Source of the DNA: Thermodesulfovibrionales bacterium
Lineage (GTDB): Bacteria > Nitrospirota > Thermodesulfovibrionia > Thermodesulfovibrionales > JdFR-86
Length of the DNA: 64,000 bases
Direction: 5' to 3'
NCBI GenBank assembly: GCA_030682405.1
Contig: JAUXOF010000082.1
Span: 1,211 to 65,210 of the forward strand
Below the pieces are notes generated by a model. The model did not search any database. It was not told where the DNA came from and saw nothing but the letters and a program-made list of their open reading frames with translations. A program made the position numbers and the translations under genes. This document shows, one piece after another, positions 7,302-28,252 of this stretch; the stretch's first letter is position 1, and each line of letters begins with the position of its first letter.

Positions 7302-8395
7302 GCCGTAAAGAACGCCTCTACAATCCCGGGGTCAAACTGCCTTCCTGCATACTTCCTGAGCTCACTAAAAGCGGTCTCCGCACTGAGGGCCTTTCTGTAC
7401 GGCCTGTCCGTTGTCATGGCATCGTATGTGTCGGCCACGGCGATTATCCTTGCAGAAAGATGTATATCCCCGTCCTTGAGCCCGTCGGGATAGCCTGTGC
7501 CGTCATGTTTTTCATGGTGTCCCCTGACCCCGGGGACGATGTCCCTCAGTTGCCTGATGTGCCCGAGTATTTCGGAGCCGTATCCTGGGTGCATTTGCAT
7601 CGCCTTCAGTTCCTCAGGCTCAAGCCTGCCCTCTTTCAGAAGGACGCAGTCTCGGATGCCGATTTTTCCGATGTCATGGAGTATGGCGGAAAGCTTCAGG
7701 TTCTCAAGCTCCGCCCTGCCAAGCCCCATCGAGCGTCCGATTGCAAGGCTGTAGTTCATCACCCTTCTTGTATGGCCTCCTGTATAGGGATCCCTTTTCT
7801 CTATTGTCTCGGCAAGGGCCTGCGCCGTGCCGTAGAATGTCTCTTTAAGCTCCTGATAGAGGTTTGCGTTTTCCACTGCAACAGCCACCTGATTGGAAAG
7901 GGCCTCAAGTATGTCGGCATCCTCGCGGTCGAACTTGCCGCTGCGCTTGTTTATCACCTGAAGGACTCCCAAAATCTTCTCCTTTGTCCTGACCGGCGCG
8001 CATACGAGGTCATGAGTGACGAATTCGCTTTTTTTGTCCGCCCCCTTAAAGAACCTGGGGTCTGACTGCACATCAAGCACGACAACCGTCTCGCCGTGCT
8101 CGGCAACCCAGCCTGCGATGCCCTGCCCCTTCTTGAGCCTTACCTCCTTGAGCTTGTCCCCCTTTTCGCCGAGGGCAACCTCAAAAAAAAGCTCTCCGGT
8201 CTCCTTGTCTATAAGAATAATGCTTCCGGTCTCGGCGCCTGTAAGCCTTGTGGCCGCCTCTATCGCCCGCCTTCTTACCTCGCGCGTCTCAAGCGTGGAG
8301 TTGATAAGTGCGGTCAGCTCTATCAGAGTACTGAGCTGCTCGAGCTTTTTCAGAGACTTATCGTCCATTACTCCCGGCATCTCTAAACCTGTCAC
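7274..8395 (-). CDS. GAF domain / HD-GYP domain protein (putative c-di-GMP phosphodiesterase)
   Basis: GAF-like N-terminal half. HD (ILHDIGK) and HHEKHDGTGYPDGL signature in the C-terminal half. Confidence 0.85.
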   Translation of the reverse strand: MTGLEMPGVMDDKSLKKLEQLSTLIELTALINSTLETREVRRRAIEAATRLTGAETGSIILIDKETGELFFEVALGEKGDKLKEVRLKKGQGIAGWVAEHGETVVVLDVQSDPRFFKGADKKSEFVTHDLVCAPVRTKEKILGVLQVINKRSGKFDREDADILEALSNQVAVAVENANLYQELKETFYGTAQALAETIEKRDPYTGGHTRRVMNYSLAIGRSMGLGRAELENLKLSAILHDIGKIGIRDCVLLKEGRLEPEELKAMQMHPGYGSEILGHIRQLRDIVPGVRGHHEKHDGTGYPDGLKDGDIHLSARIIAVADTYDAMTTDRPYRKALSAETAFSELRKYAGRQFDPGIVEAFFTAWKEGEIVL

Positions 8396-8400
8396 AGCGT

Positions 8401-9183
8401 TCAGACTATTTTATCCCTGAGGCCACTGAGGAATCTCCTCAGCTCCTCCTCAGGCTCGCTAAGCCTCTTTACTATTGCGCTCCCTACGATGACGCCGTCT
8501 GCAAGCGCAGCCACTGCCTTTGCCTCCTCAGGGCTTCCCACCCCGAACCCGACGGCTACGTGCGTCTTGGTAAGGCCGCGCACGCGGGATATGGATTCAG
8601 CCACAGACTCCTCAAGAAGAAGCCTTGCCCCTGTAATCCCGGTTATTGAAACATAGTATATAAAACCCCTCGATGATTTTGCCACTTTTTTTATCCTCTC
8701 AGGCGTGGAGGTGGGGGCAAGCATGAATATCGTGTCCACCCTGTGCTTCCTCGCAACCGGGATGAGGCTTCCGGCCTCGTCAGGCGGAAGGTCGGGTATT
8801 ATCAGGCCGTCCACCCCTGCCTCTGATGCGTCCCTTATAAACGCCTCCTCGCCGTACTTAAAGACCGGATTATAGTAAGTCATTAAGACTATGGGGATTT
8901 TTGAGAAAAGCCGTATCTCCCTTACGAGGGACACTACCTTGCGGAGCGTGACCCCGTTAGCAAGCGCCCTTTCTGCGGCCCTCTGTATGACAGGGCCGTC
9001 GGCAACCGGGTCTGTGAACGGGACCCCAAGCTCGATAATGTCCGCGCCGCACTCCTCAAGAACTTTAATAAGCCCCTTAGTCCTTTCTACGGACGGATCC
9101 CCGGCCATTATGTAAGGTATGAATGCCTTCCGGCCCTGCTTTTTAAGGTTGTTAAATGTTTTTGAGATGTTTGACATCGGCAT
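8401..9183 (-). CDS. trpA: Tryptophan synthase alpha chain
   Basis: 260 aa. Typical TrpA motifs (ELGVPFTDPVADGPVIQ, GFIYYVSITGITG). Confidence 0.9.
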   Translation of the reverse strand: MPMSNISKTFNNLKKQGRKAFIPYIMAGDPSVERTKGLIKVLEECGADIIELGVPFTDPVADGPVIQRAAERALANGVTLRKVVSLVREIRLFSKIPIVLMTYYNPVFKYGEEAFIRDASEAGVDGLIIPDLPPDEAGSLIPVARKHRVDTIFMLAPTSTPERIKKVAKSSRGFIYYVSITGITGARLLLEESVAESISRVRGLTKTHVAVGFGVGSPEEAKAVAALADGVIVGSAIVKRLSEPEEELRRFLSGLRDKIV

Positions 9184-9186
9184 CCA

Positions 9187-10035
9187 TTAAATATGCAACC
9201 GTTTAATAAATTCCTCATGCTTTGTTGTTAAAATAATTTGATTAACTGGATATATCCTATCATTGAATTTGACCTTTACAAGCCAATTGTCCTGATCAAA
9301 TTCGTTTTTAACCTCTGCATATTCAAATTGTCTATGACAATTAGGACACACAACTAAAAGATTTTTCGGATTGTTAGAAAGAAGAGGGTTAATATGATGA
9401 ACTTCAAAATATGGCTCGTTATCTTTTTTAAGAAACCAGAATTCACAAACTTGGCAATGACCTTGATAAATATCACCTAACAAAACCCTTAAATTGTTAG
9501 GCACGCTCTCCTTTGCTTGATTTGAGCGTCTATTTACATAGCGTCTTACCTCTGTTGGTAAGGTATCAACCAGACGAACATATTCGTTGAGAACAACTTG
9601 GCTTCTGTCAATACTTGCCCATTTTGAAAGCTTTAAAATTTCTTCCTTTGCTGAAACGTCATTTTCTGAACTATCAAGACTCTCTTGGAGTTCATGGGTT
9701 TTCAATATGTATTTACTCTCAGGTATTAATCTATAAATAAAATGTTTTTTATCCACCAATTGAACAACAATTTCATCGCCATCTTTAATCTTATTGCGTC
9801 TAAACCATTCCGCCATACCGCCAATTCTGCATTCTCTGGTTTTACTCTCATAAGAAGAATACTTCTTACTTTCAGGGGTGATAGAGTCATCCAAATAAAT
9901 TTGAATTCGAGCATTATGCTCAGGAAACCATTTTATCAAAGATATGGGTATCGCTATTAAGCCCTTATTGATACGGCTTTGCGTTATTTTGATTGTTGCA
10001 TAATTATAGTTAATTGGACTTTTGACTTTAATCAT
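9187..10035 (-). CDS. HNH endonuclease domain protein with N-terminal beta-rich putative DNA-binding domain
   Basis: C-terminal HNH/zinc motif CQVCEFWF...FEVHHINPLLSNNPKNLLVVCPNCHRQFE. AT-rich. Start overlaps the stop of the upstream 55-aa ORF (TAATG). Confidence 0.75.
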   Translation of the reverse strand: MIKVKSPINYNYATIKITQSRINKGLIAIPISLIKWFPEHNARIQIYLDDSITPESKKYSSYESKTRECRIGGMAEWFRRNKIKDGDEIVVQLVDKKHFIYRLIPESKYILKTHELQESLDSSENDVSAKEEILKLSKWASIDRSQVVLNEYVRLVDTLPTEVRRYVNRRSNQAKESVPNNLRVLLGDIYQGHCQVCEFWFLKKDNEPYFEVHHINPLLSNNPKNLLVVCPNCHRQFEYAEVKNEFDQDNWLVKVKFNDRIYPVNQIILTTKHEEFIKRLHI

Positions 10036-10202
10036 TAATCAGGCATTACCTCGTCGCAATCTTTCCATTCTTCTAAAGAGTTTAATATTTGATTATCATC
10101 TATTGGCAAGCTTTTCGCTTTTTCGTATGCAGATTCTTCATCTGCCGCATCTACTTCATAAGAACAAAAACCGGAAAAATATTTCCTCACAATGTATTTC
10201 AT
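10035..10202 (-). CDS. Small acidic protein (55 aa), below the ORF-track cutoff
   Basis: Hand translation: MKYIVRKYFSGFCSYEVDAADEESAYEKAKSLPIDDNQILNSLEEWKDCDEVMPD. ATGA overlap with the upstream gene and TAATG overlap with the downstream HNH gene. Confidence 0.4.
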   Translation of the reverse strand: MKYIVRKYFSGFCSYEVDAADEESAYEKAKSLPIDDNQILNSLEEWKDCDEVMPD

Positions 10203-10816
10203 ATTTCACCTTTGAGGTGGTCAACTTTTGAGTAATAGCTATTTGTGATAGGCGTATTCCCCATGATGATAATCGGTAGTTTTGACGCTTTAGAGCTTGA
10301 GACTCTTATATTTATGCTTTTGCCGATTGCCTTGAGCATTGAATCAGAACGTAAAAGGCCGGGATTCCCTTGATGAGTTCTATAGTCACCAATACAGACT
10401 AATGACTTACTCTTTTGCCGTTCCCAATTCCAGACGATAGACATTTTGACTTCAATTATCGCTGATATGTCTTCTGGATTTTGATTGATATTATTTTGTT
10501 TAGATATAACTACATCGGCAGGAGACATATTAGACAGAGCAATCTCATTACAAATAGCGCCCTTAACTGCGAATAACCCCATATCTTTTACAATCGCCTG
10601 AATTAAGTCAGTAGTCCATTTTTCTGTGAAACTTCCAATTAAAGCATTTCTGCTTTGCAGAGTGCTTTTTTTACCATCATAACCTTTGGGCCAGTAAGCC
10701 AGATACTTGCCAGAGTCAGTGACATAAAATAACTGTTCCGGCGTTGCAAACCGAGTTGACTCTTCAAGGAACTTTTGCTCAACTTGTTTGTTCCACAGTT
10801 TTTCCATTTGAGCCAT
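10199..10816 (-). CDS. Hypothetical protein, candidate PD-(D/E)XK nuclease
   Basis: 205 aa, AT-rich. Candidate motif SPADVVIS ... AIIEVKMS (D-Xn-E-X-K). First gene of a 3-gene coupled cassette between trpB and trpA. Confidence 0.4.
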   Translation of the reverse strand: MAQMEKLWNKQVEQKFLEESTRFATPEQLFYVTDSGKYLAYWPKGYDGKKSTLQSRNALIGSFTEKWTTDLIQAIVKDMGLFAVKGAICNEIALSNMSPADVVISKQNNINQNPEDISAIIEVKMSIVWNWERQKSKSLVCIGDYRTHQGNPGLLRSDSMLKAIGKSINIRVSSSKASKLPIIIMGNTPITNSYYSKVDHLKGEI

Positions 10817-10865
10817 TTTACCCTTTTATTAGCCGAATATGGAAGGTGTTCATTCGATCATCCCC

Positions 10866-12041
10866 TTATAATTCCATCCCCTTAATCCGGGCAACGTGCT
10901 CCACGTCCTTGTCCCCGCGGCCAGAGAGGTTTATGATTATGATTTTATCCTTCGGGAGCGCAGGGGCGAGCTTTGCCGCCTCTGCCACTGCATGGGCGGA
11001 CTCAAGAGCAGGGATTATGCCCTCTGTGCGGGATAAAAGCTCAAATGCAGAGAGGGCCTCGTCATCAGTGGCATATGTGTACCGCACCCTTCCCGTGTCT
11101 TTAAGATATGAATGCTCCGGCCCGACTGAGGCGTAATCAAGCCCTGCCGAGACCGAGTGCGTGCCGAGGACATTTCCGTCTGCGTCTTGAAGGAGATAGC
11201 TCTTTGTGCCCTGAAGCACGCCTACCGAGCCTCCGGCAAAGCGCGCCGCATGCTCGCCGCTTTCTATGCCCCTTCCTCCTGCCTCCACCCCTGTCATCTC
11301 AACGGCATCGTCCAAAAACTCGTAAAAAAGCCCTATGGAGTTGCTCCCGCCGCCAACGCAGGCTATGAGATAATCCGGAAGCCTGCCCTCTGCGCGGAAT
11401 ATCTGTTTTTTGGCCTCCCTGCCTATTACGGATTGAAAGTCCCTTACGAGGGACGGAAAAGGGTGGGGGCCAAAGACAGTGCCTAAAACATAGTGTGTGG
11501 TGCGGACATTTGTTGTCCAGTCGCGGAGGGCCTCGTTTATCGCATCCTTAAGCGTCCTTGAGCCTATGTCCACTTCCCTGACATCCGCGCCCAACAGCCT
11601 CATCCTGACGACATTCAGGGCCTGCCTCTTTACGTCCTCCGTACCCATGTATATGACGCACTCCAGCCCGCAAAGAGCGGCCCCTGTTGCAGTTGCAACG
11701 CCGTGCTGGCCCGCGCCTGTTTCGGCGATTATTCTTTTTTTGCCCATCTTTTTTGCAAGAAGGGACTGTCCGAGCGCGTTATTGATTTTATGAGCGCCTG
11801 TGTGCGCGAGGTCTTCGCGCTTAAGATATATCTTTGCCCCGGCCAAGTTCTCGGTAAGCCTTTTTGCGTGATAAAGCGGGGTGGGCCTTCCTATGTATGT
11901 CTTTTGGAGATGGGTAAGCTCCTCCTGAAAATCCTTGTCGCGCTTGGAGTTAAGATACGCCTCCTCAAGCTCCGCAAGTGCGGGCATGAGGGTCTCCGGC
12001 ACGAACCTGCCGCCGTACTGGCCGAAATAGCCTTTTTTCAT
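10866..12041 (-). CDS. trpB: Tryptophan synthase beta chain
   Basis: 391 aa. PLP-lysine region [24 protein letters not shown] loop. Confidence 0.92.
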
Positions 12042-18299: not shown

Positions 18300-19400
18300 C
18301 TATATCCTCATGGGCATGATAACGCACCTGTAGTCCCCTGAATCGTCCTTTCTAAGGAGCGTGGGGCTTAGCTGGTCCTGAATCTCAAAGACGACCTTCT
18401 CCGTGGGTATTGCGCCGAGGGCGTCAAGGAGGTATCTTGCATTGAACCCTATGGTAACGGCCTCGCCGCCGTAGTCTATGGCGATTTCGTCCGTGGCCTC
18501 GCCGAGGTCCGGATTTGAGGAGGTAAAGGTTAGAACGCCGTTTGCTATGTCCGCCTTCACTGCGTTAGACCTGTCCCTGCTCATTATCGAGACCCTGCGG
18601 AGCGCCCTTATGAAACTTTCCCTGTCTATGGTGAGCTTCTTTTCATTGGCAGGCGGTATCACCTGCATGTAATTGGGGTATGTCCCCTCTATGAGCCTTG
18701 ATAGGAACTCAACCGCTCCGACCTTAAAGAGTATGTGGTTTTTCCCTATAAGCACAGAGACCTTCCCGTCTTTGTCGAGGAATTTCCTGAGTTCCGAGGC
18801 CGCCTTCCGGGGCAGTATCACCTTCTTTTCCTCTTTAAGGGCGGACGGCGCCTCCTTTGTGATTACGGCCAGCCTGTGGCCGTCCGTGCCAACGACGGTA
18901 AAGCTTTTATTATCGGGAGTTATATGAAGGAGGAGGCCGTTTAGGGTATATCTCGTATCAGACTCTCCTGCCGAATATATGGTCTTCTCTATCATCTCTG
19001 AGAGTTCTGAGGAGTTCATCTCGAACTCGTCCGCCTGCTCCATGGACGGCCATGCCGGGAAGTCTTCGGGTGAAAGACAGGCAAGCCTGAAGTTGCTTGC
19101 CCCGGCCCTGACCCGTATCCACTGCGGGTCGTCGGACTCTATTACGATGTCCCCTTCCACTTCCCTGACTATCTCAAAGAGCTTTCTTGCCGGTATGCAG
19201 AGCCTTCCTTCGTTGTCCGCGGTCAGGGCAAGGGGCTCCCTTATGGCGGTCTCAAGGTCCGTGGCCATGATATGCGCCTCCTCTTTCCCGGCCTCCAGAA
19301 GGAAATGGCTCAAGACGGGCATTGTGTTTCTCTTCTCCACGATATTCTGGATATCGGAAAGTTTCTCCAAAAGCTCCTGCTTTCCTGCTGTAAGCTTCAT
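18300..19400 (-). CDS. dnaN: DNA polymerase III beta sliding clamp
   Basis: 366 aa. Typical DnaN N-terminus (MKLTAGKQELLEKLSDIQNIVEKRNTMPVLSHFLLEA) and C-terminus (VIMPMRI). Confidence 0.95.
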   Translation of the reverse strand: MKLTAGKQELLEKLSDIQNIVEKRNTMPVLSHFLLEAGKEEAHIMATDLETAIREPLALTADNEGRLCIPARKLFEIVREVEGDIVIESDDPQWIRVRAGASNFRLACLSPEDFPAWPSMEQADEFEMNSSELSEMIEKTIYSAGESDTRYTLNGLLLHITPDNKSFTVVGTDGHRLAVITKEAPSALKEEKKVILPRKAASELRKFLDKDGKVSVLIGKNHILFKVGAVEFLSRLIEGTYPNYMQVIPPANEKKLTIDRESFIRALRRVSIMSRDRSNAVKADIANGVLTFTSSNPDLGEATDEIAIDYGGEAVTIGFNARYLLDALGAIPTEKVVFEIQDQLSPTLLRKDDSGDYRCVIMPMRI

Positions 19401-19408
19401 ACCCCCTC

Positions 19409-20758
19409 CTATGGCTTTAGTTTAATGATAAGGTTTTCTATCATCCTGTTGAAGTTTTCGTCCTGCGCCCTTTTGGCCTCCACCTGCTTGCATGCGTAGA
19501 TAACAGTGGCATGGTTCTTTCCGCCCACGCACCTGCCTATCTCGCTCAGGGAGGTCTCCGTAAGCTCCCTTGAAAGGTACATCGCCACCTGTCTGGGGAT
19601 TGCGATGTCCTTAGTGCGCCTCATTGCCCTCATGTCGGTCAGCTTCAGGCCGAAGTACTCGGCCACTGCTTTTGCTATGGCGTCTGCTGTCAGCGCCCTG
19701 TCGTCTTCCTGAATAAAATCCCTGAGTATTGATTTTGCGGCCGGCAGGTCCACAGGGCTTCCGGTCAGGGAGGAGTGGGCGCCGAGCCTGATGAGGCAGC
19801 CTTCAAGGTCCCTTATATTGGACTTCACCTTTGAGGCAAGGAAGTGCACGACATCCCCGGGCAGGGTTATGCGCTCCATCTCCGCCTTCTTCTCTATTAT
19901 CGCTATCTTTGTCTCTATGTCAGGGGGCTGGATGTCCGCTATAAGCCCCATGCCGAAGCGGGAGCGGAGCCTGTCGGTTATGGACTTTATCTCCTTCGGC
20001 GGCCTGTCGCTTGAAAGCACTATCTGCTTCTGCCTCTCGTAAAGCACGTTTAAGGTGTGGAATAGCTCCTCCTGAGTGGCCGTCTTGTTCTCAAGAAGCT
20101 GCACGTCGTCTATGAGGAGGAGGTCGAGGTTCCTGTATTTGCTTTTGAGTTCCTCTGTCTTTGAGTTCCTGAAGGCAAAAACGACCTCGCTCGTAAACTG
20201 CTCTGAGGAAACATAAAGGATATTGCAGTCCGGCCTCTTGTCTGCCACATAGTTGCCCACCGCGCTTATGAGATGGGTCTTCCCAAGCCCCACGCCTCCG
20301 TACACAAAAAGCGGGTTATAGGCAGAACCGGGGGAATCCGCAACCGCCCTTGCCGCGGCCTGAGCGAATTGATTGGAGGGGCCTGCGATGAAGTTCCCAA
20401 AGGTGTATTTCGGGTTCAGGTATATGCCCCTGCCTGCAAGCTTTGTCCTCCTGCTTTCAAGCCGGGCGTCCATCCTCTTTATCCCGGTGGCCTGCTTCTC
20501 CGCTATGTTGTACTTTACCGCCATGTTCATGTTCCGGCCCGCAGATTCGGGCATGAGGCTGCCTATGGTTTCGGATATGAGGGCAGGGTGATAGTCTTCT
20601 ATCCACTCCTTGAAAAACCTGTTAGGCACCTCTATCGTGGCCTGTCCCTCCTTTATCTGTATGAGCCTAATAGGCTTAAACCAGAGCTCGAAAGTGCTTG
20701 CGCCCACCTTCTCCTCTATAGCTGAAAGACTTTTCTGCCAGAGCTTTTCTTCTTCCAT
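19409..20758 (-). CDS. dnaA: Chromosomal replication initiator DnaA
   Basis: 449 aa. Walker A GGVGLGKTHL, DDVQ box, C-terminal DNA-binding signature (IAIPRQVAMYLSRELT). Confidence 0.95.
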   Translation of the reverse strand: MEEEKLWQKSLSAIEEKVGASTFELWFKPIRLIQIKEGQATIEVPNRFFKEWIEDYHPALISETIGSLMPESAGRNMNMAVKYNIAEKQATGIKRMDARLESRRTKLAGRGIYLNPKYTFGNFIAGPSNQFAQAAARAVADSPGSAYNPLFVYGGVGLGKTHLISAVGNYVADKRPDCNILYVSSEQFTSEVVFAFRNSKTEELKSKYRNLDLLLIDDVQLLENKTATQEELFHTLNVLYERQKQIVLSSDRPPKEIKSITDRLRSRFGMGLIADIQPPDIETKIAIIEKKAEMERITLPGDVVHFLASKVKSNIRDLEGCLIRLGAHSSLTGSPVDLPAAKSILRDFIQEDDRALTADAIAKAVAEYFGLKLTDMRAMRRTKDIAIPRQVAMYLSRELTETSLSEIGRCVGGKNHATVIYACKQVEAKRAQDENFNRMIENLIIKLKP

Positions 20759-21074
20759 TAGTCACTTACCAATAAGTTATAAACAATTGTTAGTATCTTC
20801 TCCGGCGGGTCGTTTATTTTTGCCGCCTTATTATAAGCTAATGTCAGCACCTATATCAAGAAACCTTTGTGATTTGTCCGTATCTAAAAACCGGCTATTT
20901 TCCCCACATATTTTTTAAAGCAAAACACTCTTATCCACAATTGATTCAAGCCTATAAACCCTCTGCCTGCGGCCTTCTTCAGGCCTTTTCACTTTTCAAC
21001 ATCCCTTTCTACTACTGTTTAAAGAATATTTAAATTAAAAATAGAATACAAACAGCGTTTAAGTAAAAAGTATA
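20759..21074. other. Candidate oriC (DnaA box plus AT-rich unwinding region)
   Basis: Perfect DnaA box TTATCCACA at 20931-20939. Degenerate boxes TTATAAACA (about 20775) and TTCCCCACA (about 20901). Strongly AT-rich stretch 21020-21074. Lies directly upstream of dnaA. Confidence 0.5.
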
Positions 21075-22197
21075 TTATTTTTTGCCCCCTACGGTCCCCT
21101 TAAGCGCCTCTTTAATGAAAACTCCTATGTTACCGCCAAGCACTGAGTCCACGTCCCCTACCTCAATCCCGGTCCTATGGTCTTTTACAAGCCTGTAGGG
21201 CTGAAGCACATACGAGCGTATCTGGCTTCCCCATGCAATGCCCTTCTTATCCCCGCCCGCGCCCTCAATCTTTTTTTCCTGAGCTCGAAGCCCTATGTCA
21301 TAGAGCCTTGCCCTTATTACCTTCAGGGCAACCTCCTTATTCCTGTGCTGGGAGCGCTCGTTTTGACAGGAGACTACAATGCCGGTGGGCAGATGGGTTA
21401 TCCGCACGGCAGAGGAGGTCTTATTCACATGCTGACCCCCGGCGCCGGAGGCCCTGAAGGTGTCAATTTTTAAATCGTCCTCTTTTAGGTCAACCTCCAC
21501 ATCGTCCTCTATCTCAGGGTAGACGATGACAGCGGAAAAGGAGGTGTGCCTCCTTTTATTGGCGTCAAAAGGGGATATCCTCACAAGCCTGTGCACACCG
21601 CTTTCTGTCCTAAGATGCCCGAAGGCGTAAAGGCCCCTTACCGTAAGGGTTACCCCTTTAATCCCGGCCTCATCCCCGGGCTGCATGTCCACAACCTGTG
21701 TTTCATAGCCGTTAGCCTCGGCCCACCTGAGGTACATCCTCAAGAGCATCTGCGCCCAGTCCTGACTCTCGGTGCCCCCTGCCCCCGGGTGTATGGTAAG
21801 AATCGCATTGCCCCTGTCAAACTCGCCTGAAAGGAGATATCGTATCTCAAGCTCGTCGAGAAGGGACTTGAGTTTTTTTATCCCGGCGGTGAGTTCCTCA
21901 AGGAACATCTCCCCTTCCTCTTCATCAAGCACGCCGACCGAGCCCTTAATGTAGGAAAGCCTGTCTGATGCCGTAGAGAGGGGATTAAGGACATCCTCGT
22001 AAGAGGACTTCTTTTTCCGCAGTTCCTGCATCCTCCGGGGGGACGACCATGTCTCCTCCATGGCAAGCTCCCCCTCGATGCCGGCTATTTCCCGCTTGAG
22101 CCTCTCCGTATCAAAGATAACCTCGGAGGTAGTCTATCTTTTCCTCCAAAAGGATGAGTTCCTTCTGTATATCCTCTTTAAGCACAGCACCCCCCAT
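21075..22197 (-). CDS. prfB: Peptide chain release factor 2, with programmed +1 frameshift
   Basis: Frame-0 leader MGGAVLKEDIQKELILLEEKIDYLRGYL ends at CTT TGA (TGA at 22111-22113). The +1 frame continues DTERLKREIAGIEGELAMEETW... into the 328-aa ORF, which contains SPF and GGQ motifs. Confidence 0.9.
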
Positions 22198-22326
22198 GGT
22201 TGTAAAAAATAAACCGGAATCCGGTTGGCAAAGACAATTCTTCTTATTTTAGCATAAATATCCGGGCCAAATCCAGAGGCAGCGGGTTTCGGCAACCCTG
22301 CTGCGGAAACCCCTCTTAGCACAACT

Positions 22327-22354
22327 TTGACAAACAGGCTGGGACGCATATAAA
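22327..22354 (+). promoter_or_regulatory. Sigma70-like promoter TTGACA-N16-TATAAA, 7 nt before the ATG (possible leaderless mRNA)
   Basis: TTGACA at 22327-22332, TATAAA at 22349-22354, ATG at 22362, with no Shine-Dalgarno sequence between. Confidence 0.35.
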
Positions 22355-22361
22355 ATACGGC

Positions 22362-23045
22362 ATGAAGAAGATACTGATAGTGGACGAGATAAAGTCCGCG
22401 GTGGAGGAGGAGCAGGGCATCCTCAAGAGGGCCGACATTCACATATTCACGGCAGGCACAGGGGATGAGGCCCTAAATGTCCACAGGGCCGAGAAGGTAA
22501 ACCTCATTATAGCCGCGCTGGACATGCCGGGCATGAACGGCGACGAGCTCTGCTGCGCGATAAGAGAGGACGGCGGGCTGAAAAAGGTCTCCGTAATCCT
22601 CGTATGCAACAGGAGGAAGGCGGACATCGAGCGGTGTGCAAACTGCGGCGCCAATTCCTACATAACCCAGCCGATAAACCCCGAAGAGCTAAGGCAGAAG
22701 GTGGGCAAGCTCCTCGACGTCCCCGGCAGGCGGGACCTCAGGGTGCTGATAAAGGCCGAGGTCAAGGGGTACTTTAAGAGCAAGCCGTTTTACTGCACGT
22801 CCGAGAACATCAGCCGGTCGGGCCTCCTCCTTGAGGCAGGCCGCGCTCTGGCAAAGGGGGACAAGGTAAGCTGCTCGTTTTTCATCCCGGACGAGTACCG
22901 CATAATCGCCGACTGCGAGGTCGTGAGGGTAGCAAAGAAGGAGATGAACACCTACTACTACGGCATCAGGTTCACGAACATAGACGAGGGTTATGTGGCG
23001 GCCATAGACCGCTATGTCGAAAAAAGGCTCAGGGGGGAGGCGTGA
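22362..23045 (+). CDS. Response-regulator receiver domain fused to PilZ (c-di-GMP binding) domain
   Basis: REC (KILIVDE...DMPGMNG). PilZ motifs RRDLR (RxxxR) and ENISRSG (D/NxSxxG). Confidence 0.8.
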   Translation: MKKILIVDEIKSAVEEEQGILKRADIHIFTAGTGDEALNVHRAEKVNLIIAALDMPGMNGDELCCAIREDGGLKKVSVILVCNRRKADIERCANCGANSYITQPINPEELRQKVGKLLDVPGRRDLRVLIKAEVKGYFKSKPFYCTSENISRSGLLLEAGRALAKGDKVSCSFFIPDEYRIIADCEVVRVAKKEMNTYYYGIRFTNIDEGYVAAIDRYVEKRLRGEA

Positions 23046-23063
23046 TGTTCCACGTGGAACAAT
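23045..23063. repeat. Left copy of 19-bp inverted repeat containing the 16-bp perfect palindrome TGTTCCACGTGGAACA
   Basis: ATGTTCCACGTGGAACAAT. Exact reverse complement of 24291-24309. Overlaps the REC-PilZ stop codon. Confidence 0.9.
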
Positions 23064-23157
23064 ACCATTGTCCTGTCAGTGACATAGAAGCAAAACACCA
23101 TGAAATGATATAATATTTCCGAATAATTCTATCAACGAAGGAGGGTAGAGACCCAAC

Positions 23158-23358
23158 ATGAAACTTCATGTTCATATAGAGCAAGACGAGGCCGGATATT
23201 TCGTTGCCGAGGTTCCCGCGCTTCCCGGCTGTTTGTCCCAAGGTAAAACGAGGGAAGAGGCCATTAAGAATATTCAGGAGGCGGTAGGGGGCTGGCTTGA
23301 GGTCATGGAGTCCAAACGGAAGTATCCTAAAAAGGAGATGATAGAGGTTTTCATCTGA
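23158..23358 (+). CDS. hicB: HicB-family antitoxin (UPF0150)
   Basis: 66 aa. Pattern EQDEAGYFVAEVPALPGCLSQGKTREEAIKNIQEA is typical of HicB N-terminal domains. RBS GGAGGG. Confidence 0.8.
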   Translation: MKLHVHIEQDEAGYFVAEVPALPGCLSQGKTREEAIKNIQEAVGGWLEVMESKRKYPKKEMIEVFI

Positions 23359-23390
23359 CGGGCGGCGGCCTCAAGTTCTGTTCCGGCGCC

Positions 23391-23579
23391 ATGGCGGTGA
23401 AAAAATTTCAACGGGCTGGCTGGAAGGTAAACCGTCAAAAAGGCTCCCATGTGATGATGACAAAAAAGGGTTATGATTATACCCTCTCCATCCCTCAGCA
23501 TTCCGAGCTCGGCCCGGGCATTCTAAGGAAGCTTATCAAGCAGGCAAACCTGTCCGTAGAGGAGTTTAACGGTTTATGA
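23391..23579 (+). CDS. hicA: HicA-family mRNA interferase toxin
   Basis: KKFQRAGWKVNRQKGSHVMMTK...IPQHSELGPGILRKLIKQANL. The true start may be a non-ATG codon upstream (CTG at 23355), because the frame also encodes SGA before the Met. Confidence 0.8.
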   Translation: MAVKKFQRAGWKVNRQKGSHVMMTKKGYDYTLSIPQHSELGPGILRKLIKQANLSVEEFNGL

Positions 23580-24277
23580 AGGTTTCTGACAATATAGAAA
23601 AGTATTGTTCTTATTTTCAAATTGAACTTGAAAAAATTTCTTCGCTGCAAAGCGAACGCCTCTATAAAAAAATACTTATCATGGCTATGCTTGATACATT
23701 GGCATACGCAAGTTGCCCCTCCGAAGAAAGCAATAAAAAACGCTTTTTAAGTTTCATTGACAACTATGCCGATTGGCCGAAAAAAAATCATGTAAGCCTG
23801 CCCCAGCTTCAGCTATTATTGGCAAATGAGACGTGTCAGAGTAAACTTACGATGAAAATAGCAGAAAGGTTGAAATCTTGGCCATTGGAAACGGGGCCGA
23901 AGGACGACCCGTCGCAGGACGATGAAATTTTCAGTAGCGAGAACCAGCAGGAGAAGAAGTTAAGAGAAGAGGAGAAGAAGTTAAGAGAAAAATCGACATA
24001 TAAGAATTTATTGTATGCTTATCGCAATCACCTTGTTCATGAATTCAGAGAACCCGGCTATGCGATTGAAAGCGATGATGCCGGCGACAAACCTTTTTAT
24101 GCACAGATGCGTCCTATAGAAAGCGGCTTAAAGACGTGGGAGCTTTGTTATCCACTCGGGTTTTTCAAAAAAATTGCAGAGTCTTCGCTTAATAAGCTCA
24201 CTGAATATTTCAGAAAAGGGAATATCGATCCGTATTCGCTCTATAGAGATAAAATCGGCTCTCTTTGGAGGCGGTAG
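23576..24277 (+). CDS. Hypothetical 233-aa protein with HEPN-like RNxxxH motif
   Basis: ATGA overlap with the hicA stop. AT-richer than hicBA. Motif LLYAYRNHLVHEF (R-X4-H). Internal 21-bp tandem duplication (EKKLREE/EKKLREK). Confidence 0.4.
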   Translation: MKVSDNIEKYCSYFQIELEKISSLQSERLYKKILIMAMLDTLAYASCPSEESNKKRFLSFIDNYADWPKKNHVSLPQLQLLLANETCQSKLTMKIAERLKSWPLETGPKDDPSQDDEIFSSENQQEKKLREEEKKLREKSTYKNLLYAYRNHLVHEFREPGYAIESDDAGDKPFYAQMRPIESGLKTWELCYPLGFFKKIAESSLNKLTEYFRKGNIDPYSLYRDKIGSLWRR

Positions 24278-24290
24278 TCTCGATTCCCCG

Positions 24291-24309
24291 ATTGTTCCAC
24301 GTGGAACAT
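24291..24309. repeat. Right copy of 19-bp inverted repeat / 16-bp palindrome
   Basis: ATTGTTCCACGTGGAACAT, 5 nt from the stop of the convergent sigma54 regulator gene. Confidence 0.9.
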
Positions 24310-24314
24310 CCGGC

Positions 24315-25658
24315 TCAGGGCATGTTTATGCCGTAGGCCTTTATCTTCCTGTGGAGGTTGCTCCGCTCAATGCCGACGGCCTCGGCAGTCTTGGATATGT
24401 TCCAGCCGTTTTCCCCGAGCTTCCTGAGGAGATAGTCCCGCTCGAACGCGTCCCTTGCGTCCTTTAGGGCTGAAAGCATGAAGTAGTCCTGCCTGCCGAG
24501 CTCGCTGGAGAACAGATGCCTTGCTTCTATGACCTCGGAGGGCACCATTATGACGAGCCTCTCTATCGTGTTCCTAAGCTCCCGGACATTGCCCGGCCAG
24601 TCCGCCTTAAAGAGGCATTCGACAGCCTCCTCGGTCATGACCTTGGCCGGCCGGCCGTACTCCGAGGCTATGGCCTCAAGGAAGTGCCGGGCAAGCAGCC
24701 TTATATCTTCCTTCCTTTCCCTCAGGGGCGGGATGGTTATAGGTATGACGCTGAGCCTGAAGTAGAGGTCCTCCCTGAATGCGCCCTTCTTTGCCTCCTC
24801 CCTGAGGTCCTTGTTCGTTGCCGCTATGACCCTGAGGTCCACCTTTATGTTTTTGCTTCCGCCCACCCTCTGGAACTCCTGCGTCTCTATGGCCCTCAAG
24901 AGCTTTGACTGTGTGGTAAGGGACATGTCCCCTATCTCGTCCAGAAACAGGGTGCCGGAGTCCGCAAGCTCCAACTTCCCCTTCTTCTGCTCAAATGCGC
25001 CGGTGAAGGAGCCTTTTTCGTGGCCGAAAAGCTCGCTCTCTATAAGCTCCTGAGGTATGGCGGCGCAGTTTACCTCCACAAACGGCATCTTCGCCCGTGG
25101 ACTGAGGTCATGCAGGAGCTTTGCCACAAGCTCCTTTCCGGTGCCAGACTCCCCGTAGACAAGCACCCTGCTTGAGCTCGGCGCTGCCATCTTTATCTGT
25201 TCCATGAGCGCCTGCATGCCGGGGGTCCGGCCTATGAGCCTGGACTTGCGGGAGAGGGTCTCCCTCAGCGCCTTGTTTTCGGTCTCAAGCCTCTTCCTCT
25301 CAAGCGCCCTCCTTGCAGAAAGCACTATCCTGTCAAGCGAAAGGGGCTTTTCAAGGAAGTCGTATGCGCCCATCCGGGTCGCCTTCACAGCCATCTCTAT
25401 ATTGCCGTGGCCGGATATCATGATTACAGGCAGGTCGCTGTGTAATCCGCGTATCTCGCCCAGCGCCTCTATGCCGTCCATCCCCTGAAGCCACACGTCA
25501 AGCATAACAAGGTCTACGGCCTGCTCCTTAAGGGTCTTCACGGCCTCCTCGGCGGAGGCCGCCGTGATGACCGCATAGCCCTCGTCCCTGAATATGTCCG
25601 AAAGGCTCTCCCGTATCCCCTCCTCATCGTCCACCACAAGCACGACCGGCTCTGACAT
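24315..25658 (-). CDS. Sigma-54-dependent response regulator (NtrC/NtrX family)
   Basis: REC domain, AAA+ (GESGTGKE, GSFTGA loop), C-terminal HTH. Confidence 0.9.
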   Translation of the reverse strand: MSEPVVLVVDDEEGIRESLSDIFRDEGYAVITAASAEEAVKTLKEQAVDLVMLDVWLQGMDGIEALGEIRGLHSDLPVIMISGHGNIEMAVKATRMGAYDFLEKPLSLDRIVLSARRALERKRLETENKALRETLSRKSRLIGRTPGMQALMEQIKMAAPSSSRVLVYGESGTGKELVAKLLHDLSPRAKMPFVEVNCAAIPQELIESELFGHEKGSFTGAFEQKKGKLELADSGTLFLDEIGDMSLTTQSKLLRAIETQEFQRVGGSKNIKVDLRVIAATNKDLREEAKKGAFREDLYFRLSVIPITIPPLRERKEDIRLLARHFLEAIASEYGRPAKVMTEEAVECLFKADWPGNVRELRNTIERLVIMVPSEVIEARHLFSSELGRQDYFMLSALKDARDAFERDYLLRKLGENGWNISKTAEAVGIERSNLHRKIKAYGINMP

Positions 25659-27686
25659 CTATCCCTCCTTCATGGGCAGCTCAACGGTAAAGATGCTGCC
25701 GCGCGGTTTATTGTCCATTACCCTGATGTATCCGCCGTGTTCCGCTATTATCCTGTCGGCGATTGCAAGCCCAAGCCCTGTGCCGTGCTTTTTCGTGGAA
25801 AAGTACGGCAGGAAGAGTTTCTCCTTGTCGCTGTCCTTTATGCCCGGGCCGTTGTCCCCTACATCCACGAACAGCCGGTTGGCCTCGTAATCCGGCCGTA
25901 TCCTAACCGTGATGCTGCCGGCCTCTCCAGCTGCGGAAACCGCATTCTCAAAGAGGTTTATGAGCACCCTCTTGAACTGCTCCGCGTCAATGTCAGCGGT
26001 TGCGTCCCCGGGCTCAAGGGTTATGCTCAGGTTTTTATAGGCGCTGTACAGGCTTATTGCCTCCTCTGCCACCGCCCTCACGCCCGTGGGCCTTTTGTTT
26101 ATCTCCGGCATCTTTCCGAAGCGCGAAAACTCATCCACGAGCCTCTGGAGGCTTGCGACCTCCCTTACAATGGCGCTTGTCGAGCGCTCGAATATCTGTT
26201 CGAACTCTCCGTCTTTTTCCTGCCACTTCTTGAGCATCCTCTCTGTGGAGAGCTTGATGGGGGTGAGGGGGTTTTTTATCTCATGGGCTATCCTCCGCGC
26301 CACCTCCTGCCATGCCAGTGCCCGCTGGGCCTTAATGATGTCCGTCAGGTCGTCAAAGACCACAAGGAGGCCGCGGTATCCGCCGGCTGTATTCCTGAGG
26401 CCGGCAATCGAGACCCTCAGGATGACCTTCCTGCCGTCTATCGTCGCTCCGACCTCGGCGTGCTCAACAGCACTAAAGGTCTTGAGGTTTATGTCCTTCA
26501 GGTGCTTAAGGAGCTCCGAAGACTCTATGCCTGAGAGTATAACTCCGTAGTTCTTGCCTACTACGTCTTGGGCAGTAACGCATAGAATCCTGAGGGCTGC
26601 GGAGTTTATCATCATTACATTTCCGGCAGGGTCAAGGGACAGGACTCCGCTTTGGATGTTCTCCACGATATTCTCTATAAAGAGCCTTCTTCTGTCGGAC
26701 TCGGCGTAGGCTGTCTGAAGGAATTCCCTGCCTTCCCGTATCTCCCTCACCATGCGGTTGAAGGACTCTATCAGAAGCCCCATCTCATCCCCGCTCTTTG
26801 CCGCAACGCTTACAGAGAGGTTGCCTTCTGCCACCGCCTCCGTCGCCTCCACAAGTCCCCTTACCGGCTCGGTTATCCTGCCCGCTATCCTCAGGGCGGC
26901 CCACATTGCAAGGGATATGACCATGAGGGCGGCGAAGCCCAGTATCAGGAGAAAGTTGAGCTTAAGCGGGACGCTCCATGCCTCAAGCTTGATATAGTCC
27001 TCGTAGGTCTCTTTTATCTCCTTTACCGAGGCTGTTATGGCAGGAGGCATGATATGCTCCACTACGACGACCCCGGCCTCGGGCGCGACTGCGGGCACTG
27101 CCGCCCTAACAATGTCCCTGCCCTCCTCGGAGATAACCTCCGCGTTCCGGCCTCCCCCGAAGGCGGCCATTACCGCTACAGTGGCGTCATCAGGCATCTC
27201 CGCAAGCCGTATCACATTGTATCCTGAGGGCAGGGCAAGACCGGAGGCTGCGGCTGCGGCAGCCTCAAGGGTCTTTTCCCTTTCCATATTATAGACAACC
27301 TTGGCCACCTCTATGGAGCTTTCAAGCGGCTGCCTGAACTGGGGGCTGAAAAGCCGCTCTATATAATTGCTTCCCAGTCCGAGTGCGGCAACGAGCAGGA
27401 GGCCCGTGGGGATTGCGATGAGCGCTACGAACAGGAGCACCATCTTTGTTTTGAACCTGTAGCCCGGCACCCGGCGCTTTCTTTCGGAATAAAGCACGAG
27501 GAGGTTTTTGGCCACGAAAAATATCAGGACCCCGAGGGCTGCGATATTAAGGTTCAGAAAAAGGAGAAACAGGAGGTTGCCCAGAGGGGTGGAGCCCTCC
27601 ATCCTGAGGAGATTGAACTCTAAGACAGAGGCCGCGACCGCCAGAAGAAGCAGTATTAAGGCCGATATGACGCCTCTTTTTTTCAT
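25659..27686 (-). CDS. Sensor histidine kinase, NtrY-like (multi-TM, HAMP, PAS, HisKA, HATPase)
   Basis: 675 aa. H-box RRIAHEIKNPLTPI, N/G boxes (NLFENAV, DNGPGI, GTGLGLAI). Adjacent to the regulator gene with no intergenic gap (regulator start at 25658, kinase stop at 25659). Confidence 0.85.
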   Translation of the reverse strand: MKKRGVISALILLLLAVAASVLEFNLLRMEGSTPLGNLLFLLFLNLNIAALGVLIFFVAKNLLVLYSERKRRVPGYRFKTKMVLLFVALIAIPTGLLLVAALGLGSNYIERLFSPQFRQPLESSIEVAKVVYNMEREKTLEAAAAAASGLALPSGYNVIRLAEMPDDATVAVMAAFGGGRNAEVISEEGRDIVRAAVPAVAPEAGVVVVEHIMPPAITASVKEIKETYEDYIKLEAWSVPLKLNFLLILGFAALMVISLAMWAALRIAGRITEPVRGLVEATEAVAEGNLSVSVAAKSGDEMGLLIESFNRMVREIREGREFLQTAYAESDRRRLFIENIVENIQSGVLSLDPAGNVMMINSAALRILCVTAQDVVGKNYGVILSGIESSELLKHLKDINLKTFSAVEHAEVGATIDGRKVILRVSIAGLRNTAGGYRGLLVVFDDLTDIIKAQRALAWQEVARRIAHEIKNPLTPIKLSTERMLKKWQEKDGEFEQIFERSTSAIVREVASLQRLVDEFSRFGKMPEINKRPTGVRAVAEEAISLYSAYKNLSITLEPGDATADIDAEQFKRVLINLFENAVSAAGEAGSITVRIRPDYEANRLFVDVGDNGPGIKDSDKEKLFLPYFSTKKHGTGLGLAIADRIIAEHGGYIRVMDNKPRGSIFTVELPMKEG

Positions 27687-28252
27687 TTCCTGCCGCCTGC
27701 CTGAAACCGCTCAGAGTCCTTTGATACGCTGAATTCTTTCTCCCTTACGAAAAAAAGCAGGTGGTTTATGACCGGAGGAAGCCTGCGGAGCCGGGACTCG
27801 GCCGTGACCCTGACGAAGTACAGGTCAGGCGCAAGCTCGGAGACGTTTGTAAGCTTAAACTCCGGAGCCCGGAGCGCCCATGCCGCGAGCGGCTCGCAGC
27901 CCGAAAACCTTTTCTCAGTAAGCGTCATTCCGTCAAACGAGGTGGCGACGTACTCCTTCTTGACCGGGTCGCACCGGAGCGTCTTTGTGAAGGCCGCTCC
28001 CAGAACGAACTCATCAGGCCAGTACGGCCACACCCTGAAGAGGTCAACGTGGAATATTATCTCCTTAGGGATGCCGTTTCTGATGTCCTTAAGCTCGGCC
28101 TCGCTTAAGCTCAACGAGGATGAGACGACAATGCTGTTTTCCTTGAGCGCGACTTCCGGGCCTGCTATCTCCGCGGCCAAGGCGGCCCCTGAAAACAGCA
28201 GGGAAAGGCAGATGCCGAGCACAAGGCATAGGACTGACCGCTCCACTGACAT
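27683..28252 (-). CDS. DUF4390-like periplasmic protein (usual upstream partner of ntrY)
   Basis: Signal peptide. Pattern NGIPKEIIFHVDLFRVWPYWPDEFV. 4-nt overlap with the kinase gene. Confidence 0.55.
   Translation of the reverse strand: MSVERSVLCLVLGICLSLLFSGAALAAEIAGPEVALKENSIVVSSSLSLSEAELKDIRNGIPKEIIFHVDLFRVWPYWPDEFVLGAAFTKTLRCDPVKKEYVATSFDGMTLTEKRFSGCEPLAAWALRAPEFKLTNVSELAPDLYFVRVTAESRLRRLPPVINHLLFFVREKEFSVSKDSERFQAGGRK

Follow-up and report, generated by a model that had tools for sequence, protein, structure and literature searches.

The stretch of DNA analysed here, called the window in what follows, comprises 64,000 nucleotides (nt) of contig JAUXOF010000082.1 from a Thermodesulfovibrionales bacterium, and the element under study is a pair of identical short palindromes located between two convergent genes for response regulators. 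The palindromes bracket a cassette formed by a hicB-like antitoxin gene, a hicA toxin gene and a third open reading frame (ORF3). From the comparisons described below, it is highly probable that the two palindromes are origin-proximal chromosomal parS sites and that hicB-hicA-ORF3 is a separate, probably acquired cassette between them. The features of the junction are as follows.

22362-23045, + strand: REC-PilZ response-regulator gene, followed by parS-left
23044-23063, no strand: left 20-nt arm of the inverted identity (parS with two further nt on each side)
23046-23061, no strand: parS-left, TGTTCCACGTGGAACA, directly 3' of the REC-PilZ stop codon TGA (23043-23045)
23158-23358, + strand: hicB-like antitoxin gene, 66 amino acids (aa), Pfam HicB_lk_antitox 43.2 bits (cut-off 27)
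23391-23579, + strand: hicA toxin gene, 62 aa, Pfam HicA_toxin 56.2 bits (cut-off 27)
23576-24277, + strand: ORF3, 233 aa, family uncharacterised; hicA stop and ORF3 start overlap; lowest GC content of the region
24291-24310, no strand: right 20-nt arm of the inverted identity (parS with two further nt on each side)
24293-24308, no strand: parS-right, an exact second copy, 6 nt short of the stop codon (24315-24317) of the sigma54 regulator gene
24315-25658, - strand: sigma54-dependent response-regulator gene, convergent with the REC-PilZ gene
25659-27686 and 27683-28252: histidine kinase gene and DUF4390 gene, next after the sigma54 regulator; the same operon is found in a related locus (L337, described below)

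TGTTCCACGTGGAACA is a perfect palindrome of 16 bp with exactly two occurrences in the window (23046-23061 and 24293-24308), and there are still no more than these two when up to three mismatches are allowed, against 0.13 predicted from shuffled sequences. These exact and mismatch-tolerant searches confirm the arrangement proposed in the initial annotation, namely a 16-bp perfect palindrome in two copies on either side of hicB, hicA and a third reading frame. The reverse-complement identity of 19 nt reported there is also correct, and actually extends to 20 nt (GATGTTCCACGTGGAACAAT at 23044-23063 against ATTGTTCCACGTGGAACATC at 24291-24310; repeat I1), while the distance of 5 nt between the right copy and the stop of the sigma54 regulator gene holds for that 19-mer (6 nt for the 16-mer).

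Identity of the palindromes and their origin context

The 16-mer TGTTCCACGTGGAACA is the canonical chromosomal parS centromere and, as such, a predicted ParB site in this genome. In Pseudomonas aeruginosa, parS2 and parS3 consist of the perfect palindrome TGTTCCAC/GTGGAACA and show the highest-affinity ParB binding (Jecz et al. 2015). In a review of the subject, TGTTNCACGTGAAACA is listed as the chromosomal parS in general and TGTTCCACGTGGAACA as that of Pseudomonas putida, and the forms given there for P. aeruginosa and Myxococcus xanthus are nearly identical. Both window copies are identical to parS2/parS3 of P. aeruginosa and to the P. putida site, and both fit the consensus TGTTNCACGTGAAACA; in the literature searched, the TGTTCCACGTGGAACA string was found in nine papers, all of them on ParB/parS. 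The assignment as parS follows from this match, from the par and origin context of the same sequence in other genomes and from the origin context in the window itself, whose features are listed here.

18300-19400: dnaN, after dnaA, with Pfam DNA_pol3_beta domains
19409-20758, - strand: dnaA, Pfam Bac_DnaA, with a Walker motif; 2.3 kb from parS-left
20759-21074, no strand: candidate oriC, the AT-rich DNA separating dnaA from prfB (GC content ~35%), with a DnaA box at 20931

The two parS sites are 2.3 and 3.5 kb from the start of dnaA, and dnaA and dnaN together are 2.3-5 kb away. The box at 20931 is the consensus DnaA box TTATCCACA, the single perfect one found in 20759-21074, and both gene orientation and GC skew change sign around 22-28 kb. 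The prfB gene for release factor 2 (21075-22200, - strand) carries the classical programmed +1 frameshift: its upstream frame ends in ...GGT TAT CTT TGA at ~22116, and the main reading frame goes on in the +1 frame.

It is normal for parS to be perfectly palindromic and to occur in several copies close together. The window sites resemble well-known chromosomal examples (the Spo0J sites of Bacillus subtilis, parS1-4 of P. aeruginosa and the M. xanthus cluster) in sequence, which is that of P. aeruginosa parS2/parS3, in their proximity to the origin, in being present more than once within a few kb and in their intergenic or gene-end placement. They differ from them in that their host is an uncultured Thermodesulfovibrionales bacterium represented by a metagenome-assembled genome (MAG), in which ParB binding at the sites is predicted from sequence, and in that parAB is not beside them, whereas it is adjacent in related Nitrospiraceae MAGs.

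One genome per species was scanned for WTGTTCCACGTGGAACAW, and viral contigs were scanned for the 16-mer; among the matches listed, 240 loci (120 genomic and 120 viral, numbered with the prefix L) were fetched, and the counts that follow refer to them. Matches to WTGTTCCACGTGGAACAW are listed from Bacteroidota, Acidobacteriota, Nitrospirota, Planctomycetota, Verrucomicrobiota, Patescibacteria, Proteobacteria, Actinomycetota and Firmicutes. At 85 of the 120 genomic loci with an exact site, mnmG, rsmG, parA, parB, dnaA or dnaN lies within 8 kb, and two to five copies occur within a few kb in 42 of the 240 genomic and viral loci. Site pairs enclose housekeeping genes at several loci: rsmG (L029 and L004, two Nitrospirota genomes with the order mnmG-parS-rsmG-parS-parA-parB), parA-parB (L050 and L062) and mnmG (L037 and L097). 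Bracketing by parS therefore does not imply insertion as a general rule. Other pairs, spaced ~620 bp apart beside dnaN (L065, L084, L088 and L096), looked non-coding at first; given that they follow dnaN, they probably fall within the next gene downstream (recF in the usual gene order) and immediately past its end.

The sequence ATGTTCCACGTGGAACAT translates as Met-Phe-His-Val-Glu-His on both strands. In L004 (3734-3751) it provides the first codons of the listed rsmG reading frame, whose annotated TTG start lies one base upstream, so that parS can be embedded in coding sequence. The exact 16-mer is also present in more than 120 viral contigs of IMG/VR (L121-L240 were fetched), and mnmG, rsmG, parAB and dnaAN are all absent from the fetched flanks of these contigs; they could carry phage or plasmid centromeres, or be fragments of host DNA.

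According to the established biology of ParABS systems, from which the mechanism for the window sites is taken, dimers of ParB (a Spo0J-type CTPase clamp) would load at each 16-bp palindrome of the Thermodesulfovibrionales host and spread as cytidine triphosphate (CTP)-dependent clamps over the surrounding kilobases. The resulting partition complex would be moved and segregated by ParA and would in turn load the SMC condensin. The hicBA-ORF3 cassette would then be a passenger inside the ParB-coated centromere region, equipped with its own promoter-like site and occupying variable DNA between the two parS sites, and it may have entered between or beside sites that already existed.

The REC-PilZ junction in relatives

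The closest homologue of the window REC-PilZ protein (68% identical) is encoded on a contig of 1.2 kb, and exact-protein look-ups of REC-PilZ and ORF3 for strain variants returned nothing on record. Comparison of the junction thus draws on the following loci, given with the identity of their REC-PilZ protein to that of the window.

L321 (Nitrospiraceae MAG), 55%: parB-parA, REC-PilZ, one parS, convergent sigma54 regulator
L337/L338, 51%: parB-parA, REC-PilZ, parS, 580-bp spacer, parS, sigma54 regulator, histidine kinase, DUF4390
L334, 53%: parBA, REC-PilZ, one parS
L242, 49%: REC-PilZ, parS, DUF362 gene, Slp lipoprotein gene, parS, rpsF-ssb-rpsR
L241, 56%: syntenic dnaN-dnaA-prfB-REC-PilZ; no parS at the junction; histidine kinase-regulator operon inverted

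A REC-PilZ orthologue followed by parS is thus found in five lineages (the window, L321, L334, L337/L338 and L242). In L321 the site starts 10 nt past the REC-PilZ stop, has the form AAATT-core-AATTT and lies in an intergenic region of 141 bp, while in L337/L338 the first site is 6 nt past the REC-PilZ stop and the second overlaps the 3' end of the sigma54 regulator gene. Immediately upstream of REC-PilZ, parA-parB is present in three Nitrospiraceae MAGs (L321, L334 and L338). From the recurrence of parS after the REC-PilZ orthologue in L321, L334, L337/L338 and L242, as read from these loci, a parS at the 3' end of this gene is an old, conserved feature, and the lineages differ in whether one or two sites are present and in the intervening DNA. 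When compared by blastn with the spacers of L337, L334, L321 and L242, the window cassette gave only chance matches of 15 nt or less, and the DNA that lies between or behind the sites is dissimilar in all these lineages. The 580-bp spacer of L337 contains no called gene, and Rfam gave no match in it, in window positions 20000-25000 or in four other parS-pair loci. As both gene ends that carry parS in the window also do so in L337, there around an unrelated, gene-free spacer, a pair of sites does not require the cassette.

Several observations weigh against the interpretation of the pair as parS sites with an independent cassette between them. Within the 64-kb window, no homologue of parA, parB or RsmG was detected by motif search or by tblastn with Nitrospirales ParA, ParB and RsmG; a cognate ParB for the window sites is assumed from the relatives, in which parAB adjoins the orthologous locus, and this is the main assumption of the interpretation. 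The syntenic locus L241 has no parS at this junction, a site after REC-PilZ is also absent in L324, L332 and L336, and one relative (L321) has a single site here. Finally, the four additional inverted flank bases shared by the window copies fit a common origin of the copies better than their full independence, with a chance of ~0.016 given the flank bias. This bias is such that the flanks of parS sites elsewhere are rich in A and T, position -1 being A in 48% and T in 34% of the sites (~82% A or T) and position -2 being A in 49% (symmetrised values). The same pattern of matching flanks is seen in 3 of 54 neighbouring site pairs, including the L029 pair around the housekeeping gene rsmG, and the four shared bases are regarded as weak evidence.

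In L241 the histidine kinase/sigma54 regulator operon is inverted relative to REC-PilZ (7777-11215, against 24315-27686 in the window), and an adenosine-kinase gene is present at its junction.

The hicB-hicA-ORF3 cassette

The GC content of hicBA (48-52%) and of ORF3 (39-42%) is lower than that of the flanking genes (56-60%), and hicA, hicB and ORF3 are absent from the five loci examined in relatives. On both grounds, the hicBA-ORF3 block was probably acquired horizontally. A sigma70-like promoter match (23100-23127) and a ribosome-binding site precede hicB.

Membership in the HicAB group is indicated by adjacent hicA and hicB-like genes that both score above the curated Pfam cut-offs. The module resembles HicAB type II modules in this adjacency, but departs from them in that the antitoxin gene comes first and encodes a protein of 66 aa without a recognisable DNA-binding domain, and in that hicA is followed by a third gene, uncharacterised and translationally coupled to it. 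Of the 123 positions of the HicB_lk_antitox model, the HicB protein aligns only to 3-62, the N-terminal half, and a Pfam search showed no DNA-binding domain in the protein.

The third gene had been described as HEPN-like. The Rx4-6H motif behind that description is indeed present, but neither sequence nor fold homology to a HEPN family was detected; since no significant match was obtained for ORF3 in Pfam, PADLOC, PDB (sequence profile or Foldseek) or BFVD, the label stands on the motif alone. Among ten homologues of ORF3 (33-47% identical to it), a YRNHLVHEFREPG segment is invariant. This segment includes an Rx4H motif (YRNHLVHEF) within a predicted helix, with R150 invariant and H155 kept in nine of the ten. 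The AlphaFold model is confident (pLDDT 81, pTM 0.81) and mainly helical with a beta-hairpin. With up to three mismatches allowed, no parS was found near these homologues (L325-L331 and L339-L341). On the metagenomic contigs long enough to show the neighbours (L325-L331 and L339), thiD lies downstream of the homologue, and tenA precedes it where the upstream side is covered (L325, L326 and L339); the genes found there are thus those of thiamine salvage and not hicAB. The window copy of ORF3 also contains a perfect 20-nt tandem duplication at 23949-23989 (AGGAGAAGAAGTTAAGAGAA twice, with a period of 21 nt), which adds a repeated EKKLRE segment that is missing from the homologues.

Insertion, terminator and operator readings

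The initial annotation interpreted the locus as the footprint of a site-specific insertion into a palindrome. Part of this proposal survives, as the cassette does look acquired, but the palindrome is a host parS and not an att-like core or a duplicated target. The empty site that it anticipated does exist, since L321 has one palindrome between the orthologous convergent genes. It was also right that the cassette has no integrase or transposase: only hicB, hicA and ORF3 lie between the repeats, and the neighbours are response regulators. Pairs or clusters of the palindrome elsewhere routinely enclose core genes such as rsmG, parAB and mnmG. In essence, the palindrome corresponds to what the annotation itself had named as speaking against insertion, a common functional element found at many sites unrelated to insertions. 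The same cargo within the same repeat was not found elsewhere, the homologues of ORF3 being without parS and no homologue of the cassette hicA or hicB occurring in any fetched locus. Compared with att sites, attC-type boundaries of integrons and target-site duplications, the locus is alike in that a short repeat bounds accessory genes and in that a single copy exists in L321. It is unlike them in that there is no recombinase, in that the repeat is a host centromere motif widespread independently of insertions, and in that no other occurrence of the cassette genes beside this repeat was found.

A more specific version of the insertion idea holds that the cassette entered a single ancestral parS and duplicated it, so that the two copies would be attL/attR-like hybrids of one site, generated either by recombination with a parS-like palindrome on an incoming circular DNA or by a repair event at the palindrome. 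It draws on the exactly one parS that L321 has between the orthologous convergent genes, on the lower GC content of the cassette and its absence from relatives, and on the flanks, since the outer (GA...TC) and the inner ones (AT...AT) are each mutually symmetric, as would result from recombination within the core. However, the cassette carries neither a recombinase nor a transposase, L337 lacks the cassette but has a parS at each of the two corresponding gene ends, ORF3 homologues elsewhere lack a nearby parS, and the same flank symmetry recurs in 3 of 54 pairs, one of them the L029 pair that encloses the core gene rsmG, all of which makes this duplication unlikely. In the comparison of empty sites, with one site in L321 and two sites without the cassette in L337, the relatives are only 49-56% identical in REC-PilZ, and the ancestral state is therefore beyond reconstruction from them.

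It can be further speculated that parS palindromes are themselves entry points for foreign DNA, into which cassettes would integrate by recombination or repair at the short palindrome, regenerating a functional parS on each side; we consider this quite improbable. If it were true, 'parS-X-parS' units would follow REC-PilZ, with X being hicBA-ORF3 in the window, the 580-bp spacer in L337 and the DUF362 and Slp genes in L242. It would then amount to an integrase-free, centromere-targeted acquisition of genes that also multiplies parS sites.

That the palindrome is instead a bidirectional intrinsic terminator, as the initial annotation had suggested, or a repeat of the repetitive extragenic palindromic (REP) or miniature inverted-repeat transposable element (MITE) type common to the two convergent genes, is very improbable. 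The copies do sit at the 3' ends of convergent genes and could form a 6-bp stem with a 4-nt loop, with predicted folding energies, flanks included, of -9.3 and -13.5 kcal/mol. However, neither copy is followed by a run of T, and a terminator scan was empty at both sites, so that the terminator was rejected, after a consensus scan and RNA folding, as a hairpin without a T-tract. The exact conservation of 16-18 nt across phyla beside par and origin genes is not the behaviour of a terminator either, and the presence of only two copies in 64 kb (up to three mismatches) excludes a dispersed REP. As for the palindromes being operators for a regulator encoded by the cassette, such as HicB, binding to a palindromic operator close to the promoter is common among antitoxins and the left copy does lie ~95 nt upstream of hicB, but this reading deserves next to no credence, as HicB is only a half-length model match without a detected DNA-binding domain, the identical palindrome is found in hundreds of loci without hicAB, and the right copy is downstream of the operon.

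With the palindromes taken as parS sites, the identity of the feature is already known: they are ordinary parS sites, of low interest as a discovery. Recognising them assigns the contig to the replication origin of this uncultured Thermodesulfovibrionales bacterium, which is useful for the annotation of both origin and centromere. The DNA between the sites at this junction differs in every relative examined, and the centromere region would therefore tolerate acquired genes, for example those of toxin-antitoxin systems. The recurrent link of a REC-PilZ regulator, of the cyclic di-GMP type, to parAB/parS in Nitrospirota could, in addition, hint at a regulatory connection.

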